From a virus (Duplodnaviria > Caudoviricetes), in the IMG/VR virus record IMGVR_UViG_3300025416_000002, positions 1-64,000 of that record: DNA of 64,000 bases; one strand, 5' to 3'. How positions within the stretch are numbered: position 1 is the stretch's first letter; each line of letters opens with the position of its first letter. The translations under genes were made by a program, and so were the position numbers. A model generated the notes under the pieces. That model had not been told where the DNA came from and did no database searches. It worked only from the letters and a program-made list of their open reading frames with translations. Positions 12,108 to 44,957 of the stretch are shown in pieces.

Positions 12108-15100
12108 ATGGCTTACCCCACATATACAACTCCTAGATCAATCGCTGGCGCAGCTGCACCTTCTTACCTCTCTGCAACGCTTGCTAGTGGGTACTCTGCT
12201 GGTCAAACAATTACAGTTGGCAATACATCTGGCTGGTATGAGGTAAGCTCGAGTGGCACTACTACAACAAACCCATTGGGAACTAGTGGTGTATTTACGT
12301 TGGTGGTTGATTATGGTCTCAGCACAGAAGAGAAAATTCTGTGTGCATCAGGTGCAATTTCTATTGGTGCAAACTCAGTAATCTATGTGTGGACCGATGG
12401 CATAAACAATGGTCGTGGCTGGGATGGTACAGCGTCAGTTGCTCACGCTGTTGGCAGTGGCACAAATCCTAATGTATTCCTCGTTAGAACTGCAGTAGAT
12501 GACCTTCAGTTCAATACATCAGCGGCCACACTAACCAATAACCTTGCTACTCTTTCGGGTCAATATGTGGTTACTTCCGGAGTCGTTACAGCTCAAGCTG
12601 GTTATATTTCTACGATCTCAGGCAAGCAAGTAACTGATGAAGCAAATATTGCCAGTTTGTCAGGTAGTTTAGCTACTCTCAGTGGACAATATGTAACAAC
12701 TAGCGGGATTGTAACCAGCCACACTGGGTCAATTGCAAGCATCAGCGGTAGCCTTAATACTTTGTCAGGTCAATATGTTGCCACCTCTGGTAGCCTCACA
12801 ACACTTTCGGGGCAATTTGTTGCTTTAAGTGGTTCATACACTGCTACATCTGGAAGCCTCAACACTGTCAGTGGAGTTGCTTACTCTGCTTTGCAACGAT
12901 CAGGTGGCACTATCAGCGGTGCATTGAACATCACCAGCCCCATCATTGGTGGTGTTACCGCTACTAGCGGACAATCTCTTGTATGGAACAACACACAATG
13001 GGTGCCAGCAACGGTTAGTGGCGGCGGTGGAGGGATCACTTCTCTTACCGGTGACGTAACTGCAACTGGCACAGGTGCAGTAGCTGCAACACTTGTAGGA
13101 ACCACTGCTGTTAGTGGTGTAGTCAATACCATAATCAACGTTAACTCAACGGTGACAGGTACAGTTGCAAATCTTGCTACTCTTAGTGGACAATTTGTTA
13201 CACTTAGCGGTGCTTATGCGACCACATCAGGTAATCTAAACACTGTAAGCGGTGTTGCTTATGCTGCTTTGCCAGGATCCGGTGGAACCATCAGTGGTAA
13301 CCTTGTAGTTGCTTCTGGTCTTACTGTTAGTGGAACTATAAGTGGAACTACTGCTGTTTTTAGTGGTGGCGTAACAGCACAGTACTTATCAGTAAGTGGC
13401 ATCCCAGGTTCTACGTCTGGTTCTAGATTCGTGGGTGCTATTTCAACTGGTATTAGTGGCATACCTTACGGTCCTAATTCTGGTACTTATACCGTAGGCG
13501 ATTTTGTAACTGACCAAGCAGGTAAAATCTGGGTCTGCTATAGTGGCGGCACTCCTGGTCTTTGGACTACGACACTTTACAGTCTTCCTATCTATAGAAC
13601 CTATAGAGGTGGTGTAGGCGCAGCAAATAATGCTAATGGTGTAAGTATCCCAACGACAGGATCGGGACTCTTGTTAGCACCCAATGAGCAAACTATTTTG
13701 CAAATTGGTAATACACAGGGTAATGGAGTTACCTGGACATTACCTTTTAACCCTTCAAATGGTAGCATTAATACTTTTATTAATAGTAGCAATGGTTACT
13801 ATACATATCTTTTGCCATCTGGTACGGATACAATTAATGTAAATAACACTGTTTATTCTGGTACTAGTAGCCCAGGTTTGTACATTGGTCCTGGTGCTTG
13901 GTACCAGTTTAGCTATGATGCTTTTGGACAGGGCAGTGGAAAAGGTGTTTGGTTTGCATTCTCCAGCAACCAGGCTCAATATTTATCTGGTAATTTTTCC
14001 AACGTTACAGTTACAGGCACTCTAAACGCTATTGGCCCTACGAATACATTAAGTGGGACAAATAATTTATTTGGTACAACAACTATTAGTGGTAGTTACG
14101 CTTTTTACCCTGCGTTATCAGGTACACCTACAGGAGCTGCAGGCGGTGATCTTACAGGTACTTACCCTAACCCAACGTTAGTTGGAACCACAAATGTAAG
14201 CGGAATTGTTAACACTATTATCAATGTTAACTCAACGGTGACAGGTACCGCTGCTAGCTTAACTACGCTAAGTGGTCAGTATGTTGCCACTTCCGGTAGC
14301 CTTACAACGCTAAGCGGTCAGTTTGTAGTGTTAAGTGGGGCATACACAGCGACTTCAGGATCTTTGAACACCGTTAGTGGTGTAGCTTATGCTGCCCTGC
14401 CAGGATCCGGTGGAACTATTAGTGGTAACCTTGTTGTTGCTTCTGGTCTTACCGTTAGTGGCAATATTGCTTCTAGTGGTACATTCTCACTTGGCCAAAC
14501 CAGTTCACTAAACATTGTTCCTTTTGGACAAATTTACGCTCCAATCTCTTTTGGTCCAAGCTACGCTTTAATGTATAATAATGCCGGTGGTTACTTCCAG
14601 AGCACTCTACCGAGCGTTGCATTTAGTACATGGGCGTCTTTAACCAACAATGCAACTCTTGGTGGTAACTTTACCGTAGCAAGTAATCTTACTGTATCTG
14701 GCGTGTCTACTCACATTGGCAACGCTACATTTAGTGGAACTGTAACCATTGGTGGTAATAGCGTAATGACAAGTGGTTATACCGCTGGCGGTGACCTTTC
14801 AGGTGCTTACCCCAACCCAACCGTTGCTGCTATTCAGGGTAAGAGCATCAGCACGACGCAGGCAACGCTTTTGTCGCAGATGAGCAACATCGTCACGCAC
14901 AACACCGCGAGCAACCCCACCGTCACGGCTGGTGAGTTCTCGGTAGTTCCCTCGTCGGGCGTTACGGGTGCGCTCACCCTCACCCTGCCCTCGGCTCCGG
15001 CAAACGGAACCATCAACTACATCTTCAACCAGAACGTCACCTACTCCATCACCCTTGCCGCAGGTGGCACGGACAAAATCCAAAACGGCGCGAGCAGTGT

Positions 15101-16565
15101 CTCGTCATTGTCGCTGGCCTTCCTCTATTCGACCTGCTACACCGTCGAGTATTACAACGGCTTTTGGTACGCCGTCGCTGGCCCCTTCAGTGGCATCACG
15201 GGAACCGGCTCGTTGGTTTATGCTGGTGGTCCTTCAATCTCAACGCCAACGCTAACTCAACCAACAATCGCAGGCTCTGCTTCGTTTTTAGCAACAACTA
15301 ACACAGCCTCGGTTTTGGCCGCTGCTGTTCCCGCCACTCTTGCGAACGGCAACGGTCCAGTTTATATTTACACGGCGAACCCAACCGCTTCGTATCCAAT
15401 ATTGATGACCACATATCGCACTGGCTCGGCTCAATACTCTAGCACCGCAACACTTCAAGTCAACAATGGTGCGACCGCTTACTTGCCATCCTCAATCACC
15501 ATTGACGGATACCAACTTGCCGCATCTGGTTCCACGCCAAGTCTTCCTACTAACGGTCAAACATCGCCCACCTATACGGTTACGGCGGCCACGGGTAACG
15601 GAACTACCGTCACCTACACCTGCGCCAACTCACTTACCGTAGGAACCATTGTCTCAATCACGGGTCTTGGCATCGCTACGGGTTCTTCGCTCAACCTAAC
15701 GAGCGTGACCGTCGCATCCGCTAACTCTACGCAGTTCACGGTCACGAACACCACGGTAGGTACTTCAAGCGGAACAGGAACGGCAACGCCAGTACGTTCT
15801 TTTACTACCTATTACCAAGGTGGAACTCAGTGGGCTTCGGCAGACCCCAGCACATGGGCTACTTATACAATTACAGTAATCAATACAGCAGCGAACAACT
15901 CAGTTGTCTTCCTCTCTAAAACGGCTGCTGGGGCAGGATTGCCAATTACACAGGGTGGAACAGGATCAACCACTGCTATCTCTGGGTTTAACAACCTTGC
16001 TATCTCTGGTGGTACTGTTGGTGGCAACCTGGTAGCTGCTTCTGGTCTTACCGTATCTGGTGCTTTAACGCAAATTGGCAATGCTTCGTTTAGTGGTACA
16101 CTCACTGTAGCTAGTGCTATTATCAACCCTATTCTTCAGGGTGCTTATGAAGTTGTATCATACAGTGGATCAACAGTGCTTAGCGGAACAGCTACTCCAG
16201 CTACGCTTAATGCAGCAAACAGCTCTTTCTACTTCTATAATACAGCACCATCTGGTTCATATACAGTAGCAATCACCGGAGCACCAACCGTATCTGGTGT
16301 AAGTGCCACTTTTGCTTTGCTTGTAAATAATGGTTCTACGGCTTATCTGCCCAGCAACGTTACCATTAATGGTAATCAGGCGGGTGCAAGTAGCTCAGCA
16401 CTCCCATTGCAGGGCGCAACAAACAATGGTATTACTACGTACTACCAAGGTGGTACAGCATGGTCATCAGCCGATGCCAACACTCTTGATTCTTATACGT
16501 TTACTGTGATTTGCACGTCAAACACGCCTACTTGGACACTGTTAGCAGGATTGACAAAGTTCTAA
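12108..16565 (+). CDS. Large fibre/adhesin-like virion protein (1485 aa) with SG heptad repeats and mosaic modules
   Basis: S/T/G-rich; two GGDL(T/S)GxYPNPT motifs; internal duplications; duplicated C-terminal TTYYQGGT.W.SAD domain. Confidence 0.8.
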   Translation: MAYPTYTTPRSIAGAAAPSYLSATLASGYSAGQTITVGNTSGWYEVSSSGTTTTNPLGTSGVFTLVVDYGLSTEEKILCASGAISIGANSVIYVWTDGINNGRGWDGTASVAHAVGSGTNPNVFLVRTAVDDLQFNTSAATLTNNLATLSGQYVVTSGVVTAQAGYISTISGKQVTDEANIASLSGSLATLSGQYVTTSGIVTSHTGSIASISGSLNTLSGQYVATSGSLTTLSGQFVALSGSYTATSGSLNTVSGVAYSALQRSGGTISGALNITSPIIGGVTATSGQSLVWNNTQWVPATVSGGGGGITSLTGDVTATGTGAVAATLVGTTAVSGVVNTIINVNSTVTGTVANLATLSGQFVTLSGAYATTSGNLNTVSGVAYAALPGSGGTISGNLVVASGLTVSGTISGTTAVFSGGVTAQYLSVSGIPGSTSGSRFVGAISTGISGIPYGPNSGTYTVGDFVTDQAGKIWVCYSGGTPGLWTTTLYSLPIYRTYRGGVGAANNANGVSIPTTGSGLLLAPNEQTILQIGNTQGNGVTWTLPFNPSNGSINTFINSSNGYYTYLLPSGTDTINVNNTVYSGTSSPGLYIGPGAWYQFSYDAFGQGSGKGVWFAFSSNQAQYLSGNFSNVTVTGTLNAIGPTNTLSGTNNLFGTTTISGSYAFYPALSGTPTGAAGGDLTGTYPNPTLVGTTNVSGIVNTIINVNSTVTGTAASLTTLSGQYVATSGSLTTLSGQFVVLSGAYTATSGSLNTVSGVAYAALPGSGGTISGNLVVASGLTVSGNIASSGTFSLGQTSSLNIVPFGQIYAPISFGPSYALMYNNAGGYFQSTLPSVAFSTWASLTNNATLGGNFTVASNLTVSGVSTHIGNATFSGTVTIGGNSVMTSGYTAGGDLSGAYPNPTVAAIQGKSISTTQATLLSQMSNIVTHNTASNPTVTAGEFSVVPSSGVTGALTLTLPSAPANGTINYIFNQNVTYSITLAAGGTDKIQNGASSVSSLSLAFLYSTCYTVEYYNGFWYAVAGPFSGITGTGSLVYAGGPSISTPTLTQPTIAGSASFLATTNTASVLAAAVPATLANGNGPVYIYTANPTASYPILMTTYRTGSAQYSSTATLQVNNGATAYLPSSITIDGYQLAASGSTPSLPTNGQTSPTYTVTAATGNGTTVTYTCANSLTVGTIVSITGLGIATGSSLNLTSVTVASANSTQFTVTNTTVGTSSGTGTATPVRSFTTYYQGGTQWASADPSTWATYTITVINTAANNSVVFLSKTAAGAGLPITQGGTGSTTAISGFNNLAISGGTVGGNLVAASGLTVSGALTQIGNASFSGTLTVASAIINPILQGAYEVVSYSGSTVLSGTATPATLNAANSSFYFYNTAPSGSYTVAITGAPTVSGVSATFALLVNNGSTAYLPSNVTINGNQAGASSSALPLQGATNNGITTYYQGGTAWSSADANTLDSYTFTVICTSNTPTWTLLAGLTKF

Positions 16566-41961: not shown

Positions 41962-43821
41962 ATGAGTTCAGAAAAAGTTATATATGTACAGAGAAGTGAA
42001 GTTCTCAATGGAGTACTAAGATATAGCAGTTTGGACCCAGAAGTCAAGAAATTATTTTCACTAGATTCCTACGGTACTCTTCGGGATCGTGACAAGATCA
42101 GCTTTTTTGATGACTTGATCAGGTATAACGGTTACGAACTTGAGTTTGAAAACGACGAAGCCAAAGAACGGTACTACTCCCTCTTGGCATGCAGTAAGGA
42201 ACCTTTTGAAGTAAACAGTCCTTTCTTGGATGACCACAAACTCTTTCCCTTCCAGCATGTTGGTTTGAACTACGTCTGGGAACAGATTCATTCAGATAAG
42301 CCACGAGTCCTTGTCCAGTGGGACACAGGTGCTGGCAAGACCCTCCTCAGCTGCTTGACCAGTCAGAAGCTTTTCGACAACGGTGACATTGACATGGTCC
42401 TTGTCTTCTGTAAGAAGATCAAGCAGTACGACTGGGAGCAAGAGTACAAGCGGATGACTCACCTGACCGTCGATCGTGTCGGTGAGAAGATGACCCGTGC
42501 CAAGAGGCACGCCTTCTATGAGCAGAACAAGTCGCAGGTGCTCGTATTGAACTACGAGAAGGTCCGCGATGGGTCAATGAAGAAAGTCAAGGGTCAGCGT
42601 CGTCGTGTCAAGTCATATGACCGCACCGATCTAGAGCAGATCCTGGAGATGGTCAAGGATAAGCGTGTTCTTATCGTCATCGACGAATCTCAGAAGATCA
42701 ACACTGGTACCAGCCTGCTGAGCGATGGTTTCTATAAGCTCATCAACGAGTCAGCGACCCACTCACGAGTGCTGGCATTGACCGCTACACCATACACCAC
42801 CAGCCCATTGAACATCCGCAACATCATGGCCGTGGTTGCCCCTGGTATCCCTGACGTAAGCGACATGAACCGTGACAAGTTCAAGGCAATGTACGGCAAA
42901 GACTTCGGTTACTTCAACAACGGCTTTGTCCAGGAAGTATACGTGAAGGAATGGGATCGTACGAAGCTCCCCATCCTTGGTAAGAAGCACGAGGACTGGA
43001 CGCACATCGCTATGAAGAGCGACCCCAGCATCGCTGCTCAGTTCCCTGAGAGTATGCCCAAGCGTCTGGTGTACGAGCTCTCTGACATCGACCGTGAAAT
43101 CTACGATTGGGCTGAGGAACGTGCTCGTGAGAAGTACAACCCAGACAACCCTGTAGCCAACTGGTCTTACATCGACATGCTTCGGATGATCTGTAACTCT
43201 ACCGAAGGGCTCAAGAACAGTGACAGCCGCTTCGCCAAGGAGATTGTCGCAGAGTTTGGCTCAGACATCAGTATTGCCAACAGCTCGAAGTACCAGCTGA
43301 TCGAAGGCAACCTCGAATCGTACATCGAAAACGGTGACAAGTCTGTACTGTTTACCTTCTGGACGCACGGCACCCTGTTCCCCTACCTAGAAGCCTTGCG
43401 TGCGAAGTTCTCAGATGTACCAATCCTGCCTATCTGGGGTGTTGGCATGAGCAGTGATGAAGTAACCAAGAACATCAAGACATTCAACGAAACCAAGGGG
43501 CCAGCCATCCTGATTACCAGTGACGTTGGCCAGGAAGGATTGAACCTGTATGCGCCATACCTCTGGAATATTGAAATTCCAAGGACTTATGCGGAATATA
43601 AACAAAGAGCTAACCGAATTAACCGAGCTGACTCGAAATCAAAGGGGATTAATCACACTTGGATCTACCGCCCAGTTGCGAGCAATACAATCGAAGAGCG
43701 AGTTGATAGTAAAGTTCTGCGAAGAAGAGCTGAGGCAGAATCTATCCGTGGAGTAGTGGACGAGCTTGGCGACATGGAAGACACAATCGATCTAACCCCT
43801 AAGGGTTTCCTGTTTAAATAA
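41962..43821 (+). CDS. SNF2/SF2-family helicase
   Basis: FPFQ, DTGAGKT, VIDESQ, LTATP, GQEGLNL, QRANRINR. Confidence 0.9.
   Translation: MSSEKVIYVQRSEVLNGVLRYSSLDPEVKKLFSLDSYGTLRDRDKISFFDDLIRYNGYELEFENDEAKERYYSLLACSKEPFEVNSPFLDDHKLFPFQHVGLNYVWEQIHSDKPRVLVQWDTGAGKTLLSCLTSQKLFDNGDIDMVLVFCKKIKQYDWEQEYKRMTHLTVDRVGEKMTRAKRHAFYEQNKSQVLVLNYEKVRDGSMKKVKGQRRRVKSYDRTDLEQILEMVKDKRVLIVIDESQKINTGTSLLSDGFYKLINESATHSRVLALTATPYTTSPLNIRNIMAVVAPGIPDVSDMNRDKFKAMYGKDFGYFNNGFVQEVYVKEWDRTKLPILGKKHEDWTHIAMKSDPSIAAQFPESMPKRLVYELSDIDREIYDWAEERAREKYNPDNPVANWSYIDMLRMICNSTEGLKNSDSRFAKEIVAEFGSDISIANSSKYQLIEGNLESYIENGDKSVLFTFWTHGTLFPYLEALRAKFSDVPILPIWGVGMSSDEVTKNIKTFNETKGPAILITSDVGQEGLNLYAPYLWNIEIPRTYAEYKQRANRINRADSKSKGINHTWIYRPVASNTIEERVDSKVLRRRAEAESIRGVVDELGDMEDTIDLTPKGFLFK
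43550..43756 (+). CDS. Candidate overprinted gene (+1 frame, 68 aa) inside the SNF2 helicase
   Basis: AGGAAGGA SD at 43532-43539; ATG; host codons switch to A/T endings over this interval. Confidence 0.55.
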   Translation: MRHTSGILKFQGLMRNINKELTELTELTRNQRGLITLGSTAQLRAIQSKSELIVKFCEEELRQNLSVE

Positions 43822-43889
43822 ACGAAAGGATTTAAAAAGGGTTAGAACTTGGTCCTAGGTATTGAAGAGATTCATTCTCAGAATCCTTC

Positions 43890-43958
43890 CCGTAGGGCCT
43901 GGTCTTCCTCGGGGGTTGCAGTCGACGTTCTGTTACGACTCCCCCCGAGGCCCTTCGG
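43890..43958 (+). ncRNA. Structured RNA element upstream of whiB
   Basis: Nested stems CCGTAGGGCC/GGCCCTTCGG, CCTCGGGGG/CCCCCGAGG and GTCG/CGAC. Confidence 0.5.
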
Positions 43959-43966
43959 TAAATATT

Positions 43967-44365
43967 ATGGAAAAAACAACCATTGACTATACGTGGCAAA
44001 GGCATTCACTCTGTGCCACAATGGATTTAAAGCTCTTCTACCCTCCACAAGGTAAAAGATATTCCACGGAAGCAGCAGCAGCCTGCGCATCGTGCCCAGT
44101 CAAGCAAGAGTGCATTGATCATGCGCTGAAGTATGAAGAGTATGGCTACTGGTCTGGCACCACACCCAAAGAACGGGAAGCAATGCGCAAGGAGCTGGGT
44201 GTTGAACTGGTCGATATCTCCTACGAGTCTAGCTTAGTTCTTGCAGAAGAGGTCCGCAAGCACGAAGAATTTACCAACAGCCTAAAAATTAAAGGCCGTG
44301 GAAGAAAGCCAAAAAGCTTGCTTTTGCAAGACACCAATGATACGATCATCTCGGAGAACGAATAA
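43967..44365 (+). CDS. whiB: WhiB-family Fe-S transcription factor
   Basis: C...CASC-PVKQE-C four-Cys pattern and GYWSG turn. Confidence 0.9.
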   Translation: MEKTTIDYTWQRHSLCATMDLKLFYPPQGKRYSTEAAAACASCPVKQECIDHALKYEEYGYWSGTTPKEREAMRKELGVELVDISYESSLVLAEEVRKHEEFTNSLKIKGRGRKPKSLLLQDTNDTIISENE

Positions 44366-44919
44366 TGTATTCTGAGATCACAGTGTTAACTGCCACAATT
44401 CCAGAGCGTATCGACATGCTCAAGGAATGCATCGAGTCAGTAGCCAACCAGACACTTAAGCCTGTGACGCACAACATCATCGTTGATGTTAACAAGCGGG
44501 GCAATCACTTTACATACAATGACTTGCTAAGCACCGTCAAGACTAAATGGTTGTGCTTCCTAGATGACGATGATGTGTTCTACCCGGACCACCTTGAGAA
44601 GCTAGTAAAGAATTCTGAAGGCTACGACATCGTATTTGCTAACGCAGATGTCAATGACCCACTCAATATCATCCGCTACAACGACAACAACTTCGATCCC
44701 AAGCAGCTTGCTGTTGAATCAGTTGTTCCGATTACAGCGTTAGTAAAGACTGCTGCAGTACTAGACGTTGGTGGGTTTGAGCCAGTGCAGAGCTGTGACT
44801 ATAAGCTATGGCGCAGCCTCTATTTTGCTGGATACAAGTTCAACAAGATCAATGATGTCACGTGGCGCTACCGTTTTCACGACACAAATTTTTCGCGTAA
44901 AGGTATTACGTGGAACTAA
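44365..44919 (+). CDS. GT2-family glycosyltransferase
   Basis: WLCFLDDDD DxD motif; CIESVANQT. Confidence 0.85.
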   Translation: MYSEITVLTATIPERIDMLKECIESVANQTLKPVTHNIIVDVNKRGNHFTYNDLLSTVKTKWLCFLDDDDVFYPDHLEKLVKNSEGYDIVFANADVNDPLNIIRYNDNNFDPKQLAVESVVPITALVKTAAVLDVGGFEPVQSCDYKLWRSLYFAGYKFNKINDVTWRYRFHDTNFSRKGITWN

Positions 44920-44934
44920 CTTATAGTGTATAAT
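44906..44934 (+). promoter_or_regulatory. Probable promoter for the glycan cassette
   Basis: TATAAT at 44929-44934; weak -35 TTACGT 17 bp upstream. Confidence 0.45.
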
Positions 44935-44957
44935 CTTAGAAAGAACAAAGGATAAAA

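Follow-up and report, generated by a model that had tools for sequence, protein, structure and literature searches.

A probably recombinant AT-rich tract and a nested +1 open reading frame over motifs V–VI of the helicase gene of an uncultured freshwater phage

The DNA analyzed here, referred to as the window, comprises the opening 64 kb of a virus record of 80.5 kb (IMG/VR record IMGVR_UViG_3300025416_000002), in which nearly all genes lie on the + strand. One of these genes encodes an SF2/SNF2-like DNA helicase whose codon usage changes over motifs V–VI, where the +1 frame also contains an open reading frame (ORF) of 68 codons that starts with ATG behind a Shine-Dalgarno (SD)-like run. A sequence-only reading of this locus took the codon switch for the footprint of an overprinted gene. 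Does the helicase gene carry a second protein at this place, or do the switch and the open frame have other origins? On balance, the evidence tips towards a composite answer, in which the flip reflects a mosaic tract and not an overprinted gene, and the nested ORF is a by-product of the helicase protein sequence. The nested ORF is an unproven candidate gene, most likely without function.

The codon counts reported for the ORF interval were reproduced exactly (TAT 3, ATT 4, AAA 3, AAT 3, AGA 3, CGA 4). Over the preceding 400 codons, TAT/TAC stand at 3/14, ATT/ATC at 4/23, AAA/AAG at 2/33 and AAT/AAC at 0/21; AGA is absent there, CGA occurs once and CGT 13 times. NNY codons show a T:C ratio of 10:7 in the ORF versus 7:58 before it (Fisher p = 9e-5), and the GC content at third codon positions (GC3) falls from 0.69 in the helicase core to 0.36 in the ORF interval. 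The reversion described after the nested stop does take place, but only partially, GC3 returning to 0.50–0.55. Across the helicase family, an enrichment of wobble A was also noticed in the ORF region at Ala, Pro, Gly, Arg and Ser codons.

When segments of 50 codons were taken over all genes of the window, GC3 ranged from 0.16 to 0.86 and 16.5% of the segments lay at or below 0.38. The flip as such does not exceed chance, and codon usage in this DNA is a genome-wide patchwork. Within single genes GC3 can span 0.16–0.82, as at 12108–16565.

To place the flip in the history of the gene, relatives of the helicase with 56–99% protein identity were collected from IMG/VR (28 loci, later 39) and from JGI metagenomes (80). 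They yielded a comparative set of 68 distinct helicase genes in 49 lineages, clustered at 15% nucleotide distance; hereafter WIN denotes the sequence of the window and L-numbers denote relative lineages. A marked flip was observed only in the high-GC3 lineages WIN, L022, L069, L038 and L071, and more weakly in L042. In most relatives GC3 is low or moderate along the whole gene, without such a flip. The motif V–VI region has a GC3 of ~0.2–0.5 in every lineage, and the core spans 0.17–0.70.

The change of composition is accompanied by a change of nearest relative. Sliding-window identity, from which the approximate boundaries of the tract were taken (~43522 and ~43745), showed that WIN is 0.94–0.99 identical at the nucleotide level to L022, the closest sampled relative outside its own lineage cluster, over 43537–43740, and ~0.8 identical over the rest of the gene. 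With the low-GC3 lineages L082, L107 and L100, identity jumps from 0.58–0.73 to 0.85–0.93 over 43522–43730, with averages of 0.87–0.91 in the tract and 0.61–0.63 in the core. Ranked by the tract, the nearest sequences to WIN are L022, L105, L107, L082 and L100, and ranked by the core they are L105, L042, L069, L022 and L038. Identity to WIN in tract and core is 0.90 and 0.61 for L082 and 0.73 and 0.76 for L038, and the core relatives L038, L042 and L003 are only 0.73–0.75 identical to WIN in the tract. The tract is in local phylogenetic conflict with the rest of the gene, as a mosaic tract should be. Its composition is also donor-like, with a GC3 of 0.36 versus 0.69 in the WIN core, the values for L082 and L100 being 0.31–0.35 in the core and 0.29–0.34 in the region. 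Pairs of sequences that are at most 0.80 identical gene-wide yet at least 0.92 identical locally were encountered only in windows over this region, and other close pairs of the family display mosaic identity profiles as well. An exact 32-mer from the tract was found in IMG/VR only in the contig of L022, and this search returned no identical donor.

Taken together, these data make it very probable that the codon flip was caused by a recombinant AT-rich tract. In the scenario that we propose, ~210 bp over motifs V–VI would have entered a high-GC3 helicase gene from a low-GC3 relative. Homologous recombination or gene conversion would be the likely route, favoured here by the fact that no stretch of the helicase protein is more conserved. 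A recombinant patch from an AT-rich relative had been named by the sequence-only reading as an outcome that would tell against overprinting, and the identity of 0.87–0.91 between the tract and distant low-GC3 lineages is such an outcome. As the footprint of an overprinted gene the codon switch finds no support: it coincides with the recombinant tract and is confined to high-GC3 lineages. Mosaic phage tracts that arise by exchange at conserved blocks among co-circulating relatives likewise show, within one gene, an abrupt local shift in both nearest relative and codon composition. Unlike the usual ones, the tract of the window is very short, and it is the sole spot of the gene with near-identical sequence between distant lineages. 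The low-GC3 patch at the 5' end of the helicase gene (Table 1) is probably a second mosaic tract, as suggested by an identity to L022 of 0.91–0.95 over 41987–42140, compared with 0.65–0.8 in the flanks.

We then considered the nested ORF itself. The positions given for its signals proved exact (AGGAAGGA at 43532–43539, ATG at 43550, TAG ending at 43756, TTCAAC at 43483–43488 and CATCCT at 43506–43511), and the ATG (43550–43552) consists of the Tyr codon TAT and the G of the following Ala codon. The weak promoter proposed from TTCAAC-17-CATCCT found no support. Each hexamer has three of six consensus matches, 6/12 in total, where at least 9/12 matches to TTGACA-17-TATAAT were required of a sigma-70-type promoter, and a scan of 42800–44300 gave no promoter-like site.

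The length of the nested ORF does not exceed chance in a single genome. Synonymous shuffling of the ORF interval left the +1 frame open in 40–42% of trials, and 11 same-strand nested ORFs of at least 68 aa starting with ATG, all of them in the +1 frame, are present in the window. Motifs V–VI are rich in Arg, Lys, Glu, Asn and Ala and have few Leu, Ile and Val codons, and this scarcity is the reason why the shuffled frame so often stays open; a +1 stop is possible at only ~7–10 codon junctions of the interval. The 68-codon ORF would most likely be a by-product of the helicase protein sequence, in which the invariant Gln-Glu-Gly...Tyr-Ala would supply the SD-like run and, given TAT, an ATG. Pure chance combined with local mutation bias, with neither recombination nor selection at work, would also agree with a single-genome probability of ~0.4 for an open frame and with the many nested ORFs of the window. 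It would, however, explain neither why the ancestry of the tract is incongruent nor why open frames are in excess throughout the family (see below), and we regard it as very improbable.

The product of the nested ORF showed little sign of being maintained as a protein. The peptide matched no family in Pfam or PHROGs, had no usable match in the ESM Atlas and no match within 37–119 aa in a search of 5.8 billion proteins, and its language-model recognition score is below the usual level of natural proteins. Among RNA runs, none was listed as a holder of the sequence. Mean identity among lineages is 0.41 for the +1 peptide versus 0.85 for the helicase frame, and the only fixed +1 residues are those forced by the helicase frame; the +1 peptide is without sequence constraint. 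The amphipathic helices that had been read from its sequence hold for the WIN allele, for which AlphaFold2 without an alignment predicted a helical hairpin with a predicted local distance difference test score (pLDDT) of 79. They do not hold for the L003 allele, whose model is of low confidence (pLDDT 58) and differs in topology and secondary structure. The predicted fold is not conserved, which argues against an overprinted gene, as do the empty database searches.

Synonymous variation in the helicase frame gave a similar picture. An analysis of synonymous constraint on related helicase genes, suggested along with the original claim, detected none: the observed/expected ratio in the ORF is 0.99 over all lineages, 0.94 in those with an intact ORF and 1.01 in those with a broken one. 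Lowered synonymous variability bounded by the nested ORF was not found along the gene, where dips of equal size occur elsewhere. Among 279 columns ranked by synonymous conservation, the TAT that forms the ATG comes 20th and the CAG that contributes to the SD-like run 102nd, so that the SD columns are not unusually conserved. Conservation of TAT had been considered as proof of a start codon, and this argument is weakened by the 19 columns that are more conserved and by the general preference for T in NNY codons followed by G; in the window, two-fold NNY codons favour T before G (0.51 versus 0.22–0.30). Many sites throughout the helicase gene have strong synonymous preferences of their own without any ORF being involved.

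The distribution of the ORF among relatives also lacks phylogenetic coherence. The frame is broken or without ATG in 20/49 lineages (41%), being cut at codon 7, 37, 42, 44 or 51, or starting with ACG, or both. The two outgroups (56–57% identity) both have a stop at codon 42, and one of them lacks the ATG. On the core tree, ORF status requires at least 14 changes of state, compared with 15.8 when labels are shuffled, so that losses are spread almost randomly, and the root is inferred to be broken. The depletion of stops is uneven, strong at codons 42 and 56 and weak at codons 44 and 51, where stops are common; this fits the idiosyncrasy of individual columns better than selection against truncation.

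Despite these findings, the +1 frame is open in the relatives far more often than the by-product reading leads one to expect, and the observations gathered in this and the next two paragraphs weigh against that reading. The ATG is kept in 60/68 sequences and 41/49 lineages, and the frame is open for at least 64 codons with ATG in 29/49 lineages and full-length with ATG in 27/49. The sequence-only reading had held that a +1 frame closed in homologues would refute it, which is the case in the 20 lineages and both outgroups mentioned above and not in the 27–29 lineages with an intact frame. With a null built from lineage-specific codon usage, 15 open frames were seen where ~5/20 were expected. 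A context-aware null applied to 40 region alleles gave 67 expected interior +1 stops versus 25 observed, and 6.7 expected open alleles versus 23 observed. In a third null, whole columns of the helicase gene were redrawn, which preserves both the phylogeny and the codon preferences of sites. It predicted 8–9 open lineages versus the 29/49 seen (maximum 22 in 20,000 draws), and ~4 open with ATG versus 27/49; the resampling pools were small (5–17 columns), so that the nominal P < 5e-5 is overstated and a rank-based p of ~1e-3 was taken instead.

Columns immediately outside the ORF show no stop depletion, and a neighbouring control gene gave ratios of 0.8–1.0. Inside the ORF, GTA and CTR codons show depletion only when the next base is a purine, a context in which they create a +1 stop. 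A general avoidance of NTA codons in conserved motifs was rejected as the cause, since the invariant Leu just upstream of the ATG is mostly encoded by stop-forming codons and Val before pyrimidines within the ORF uses GTA at a normal rate. Shared ancestry was likewise rejected as the main cause, synonymous sites being nearly saturated between deep lineages: the fraction of identical codons in deep pairs is 0.40 versus 0.37 under independence, so its contribution is small. Of the region alleles that differ by at least 22%, 9.1 out of 17.4 have an intact ORF.

The putative initiation signals were compared as well. TAT is used at the candidate start codon with a frequency of 0.84, above all 14 other columns in which Tyr is followed by G. 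Lineages without the ATG more often carry internal stops (6/8 versus 12/41, p = 0.04). The Gln codon that completes AGGAAGG in the SD-like run reads CAG in 23/29 lineages with an intact ORF and in 6/20 with a broken one (p = 0.001), background use of CAG being equal. The excess of open frames in the relatives beats every null that was built, and the by-product reading leaves it unexplained.

These observations would agree with a young, weakly constrained and dispensable overprinted gene, or with an ORF whose translation rather than whose product matters. Translation would begin at ATG 43550 behind AGGAAGGA and yield a peptide of ~68 aa. In slightly more than half of the lineages the ATG, the SD-like run and the open frame would be maintained by selection, and the sequence would be left to drift freely. 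The ~210-bp segment would be exchanged as a cassette between divergent phages, which would produce both the codon anomaly and the buffered GC3, and the AT- and A-rich wobble positions would partly reflect needs of the +1 frame. In favour of such a gene are the 27–29 of 49 lineages with an open frame and ATG where ~4–9 are expected, the shunning of stop-forming codons only in stop-forming contexts within the ORF and not at its borders, the most T-biased TAT of 15 Tyr columns followed by G, the joint loss of the ATG, the open frame and the SD-strengthening CAG, and the helical hairpin predicted for the WIN peptide. The region also keeps a GC3 of ~0.37 whatever the GC3 of the lineage, and rapid evolution under weak selection, with atypical codon usage, has been reported for young de novo overlapping genes (Sabath et al., reviewed in PMC8227390). 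Set against it are the lack of measurable synonymous constraint and the low peptide identity, the breakage in 41% of lineages and in both outgroups, the pattern of stops, tolerated at codons 44 and 51 but depleted at codon 56, the non-conserved fold and the ordinary conservation of the SD columns. A selected nested gene of this kind is a serious possibility, but in our judgement a rather doubtful one.

The GC3 buffered in all lineages may also be regarded from the side of the nucleotides. Wobble positions could be shaped by a nucleotide-level feature unrelated to +1 coding, the open frame being a side effect. Gene conversion might recur at the conserved motif, driven by a hot spot for a nuclease or for recombination, and so spread a small number of alleles; alternatively, selection might act on the internal SD-like run or on properties of the mRNA. 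Such a feature would agree with the near-identical stretches that distant lineages have in common here and nowhere else in the gene, and with the strong synonymous preferences seen elsewhere in the absence of an ORF, for example at codons 11–19 and 150–164. It does not predict the context-specific avoidance of stop-forming codons. Moreover, synonymous variability is not reduced, and a search of 43200–44000 against Rfam, at E up to 1, gave no match. A homing endonuclease was envisaged as the source of conversion, but the genes adjoining the helicase encode a WhiB-like protein and a GT2 glycosyltransferase, not nucleases, and the idea is kept only as a weak rival. We hold a nucleotide-level origin to be improbable.

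Small genes overprinted in the +1 frame are familiar in phages, as gene E of phiX174 within D and lambda Rz1 within Rz, and both Rz1 and E carry defined signals (a lipobox and a transmembrane helix, respectively). The nested peptide, unlike these two, has no conserved signal. In influenza A virus, the 87-aa PB1-F2 is overprinted within PB1 (PMC8227390). All three are, like the nested ORF, small same-strand +1 ORFs, and the nested ORF lies wholly inside an essential enzyme gene. With PB1-F2 it shares poor conservation, truncation in many lineages and an apparent selection that is hard to separate from the constraint on the host frame. It differs from known overprints in that it is known from sequence alone, its synonymous rate is not lowered, its presence is phylogenetically incoherent and its alleles have no common predicted fold. 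The analysis is modelled on the codon permutation and synonymous mutation tests for overlapping genes (Schlub et al. 2018, PMC6188560) and on synonymous-rate scans. Judged in this way, the nested ORF does no better than chance in the length test on a single genome (P ~0.4) and fails the test of synonymous rates; only in the comparison of open frames across relatives does it exceed expectation, and there the 20 broken lineages, the truncated outgroups and the uneven depletion of stops stand on the other side.

What follows for the study of overlapping genes depends on which account is right. If the nested ORF is a mere by-product, a codon flip over a nested ORF in a mosaic phage genome marks recombination and not overprinting, which calls for caution, and conserved enzyme motifs rich in Arg, Lys and Glu yield long +1 frames for free. 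If it is selected, it would be among very few embedded same-strand genes in a replication gene of a large double-stranded DNA phage, and a live case of a de novo gene caught when selection acts only on its being open and started. The family of ~50 bog-lake lineages is in any case a good data set for methods that separate selection on an overlapping gene from host-frame constraint and recombination.

The host gene belongs with the SF2/SNF2-related helicases, having an N-terminal ATPase lobe (ResIII/SNF2-related, with Walker A and B) followed by a Helicase_C lobe with motifs V–VI. Its Pfam matches are ResIII (2e-17, 64 bits), Helicase_C (8.5e-14, 52 bits) and SNF2-rel_dom (34.4 bits for a cut-off of 24.9), the SWI2_SNF2 model falling slightly short (24.6 for a cut-off of 26.7). 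The protein also corresponds to the DNA helicase PHROG 62 (4e-51), and GAGKT and DE.Q are invariant. The nearest named proteins are helicases of Rhodococcus phage E3, Gordonia phages and Bxz1-like mycobacteriophages, at 25–29% identity. E3 gp136 and Bxz1 gp179 share the domain order of the window helicase, with a ResIII/SNF2-related N-lobe and Helicase_C, and align over >80% of the length. They are distant kin, and their annotated records show no nested gene under the matched stretches. At the DNA level, the helicase gene had no match among public phage genomes, where only distant protein matches were obtained.

Table 1. Features of the helicase locus; positions are those of the window.
Feature	Coordinates	Strand	Remarks
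Host gene, SF2/SNF2-like DNA helicase, 619 aa	41962..43821	+	Pfam and PHROG profiles
Second low-GC3 patch, 5' end of helicase gene (probable mosaic tract)	41962..42140	+	GC3 0.27–0.43 over first 60 codons
TTCAAC-17-CATCCT site	43483..43511	+	not supported as promoter
AT-rich (low-GC3) tract, probably recombinant, ~210 bp, helicase motifs V–VI	43522..43745	+	local identity shift; edges good to ~20 nt
SD-like AGGAAGGA	43532..43539	+	10 nt before nested ATG; encoded by invariant Gln-Glu-Gly of motif V
Nested +1 ORF (candidate), 68 aa	43550..43756	+	inside helicase gene; TAG at 43754-43756
WhiB-like transcription factor	43862..44365	+	Pfam PF02467 1.1e-17, PHROG 472; directly downstream of helicase

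The phage is an uncultured freshwater lineage whose relatives come mostly from bog-lake metagenomes, and the adjoining WhiB-like gene suggests an actinobacterial host. Downstream of this gene, similarity to L022 is absent over 44200–44950 and returns at ~44985, which delimits a replaced module that includes the GT2-like gene at 44365–44919.

Two clusters of fixed codons were noticed within the helicase gene itself. At 41992–42020 (helicase codons ~11–19) lie five of the 11 most conserved synonymous sites of the gene in the 49 lineages, namely S11 AGT, L14 CTC (31/48 versus 6.6 expected), G16 GGA, V17 GTA and R19 AGA, and the synonymous observed/expected ratio falls there to 0.82. The helicase mRNA may thus have, at its 5' end, an element that acts at the nucleotide level. 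The second cluster is found at ~42400–42450 (helicase codons ~146–162) and comprises Leu CTG, Val GTC, Asp GAC (47/49) and Glu GAG.

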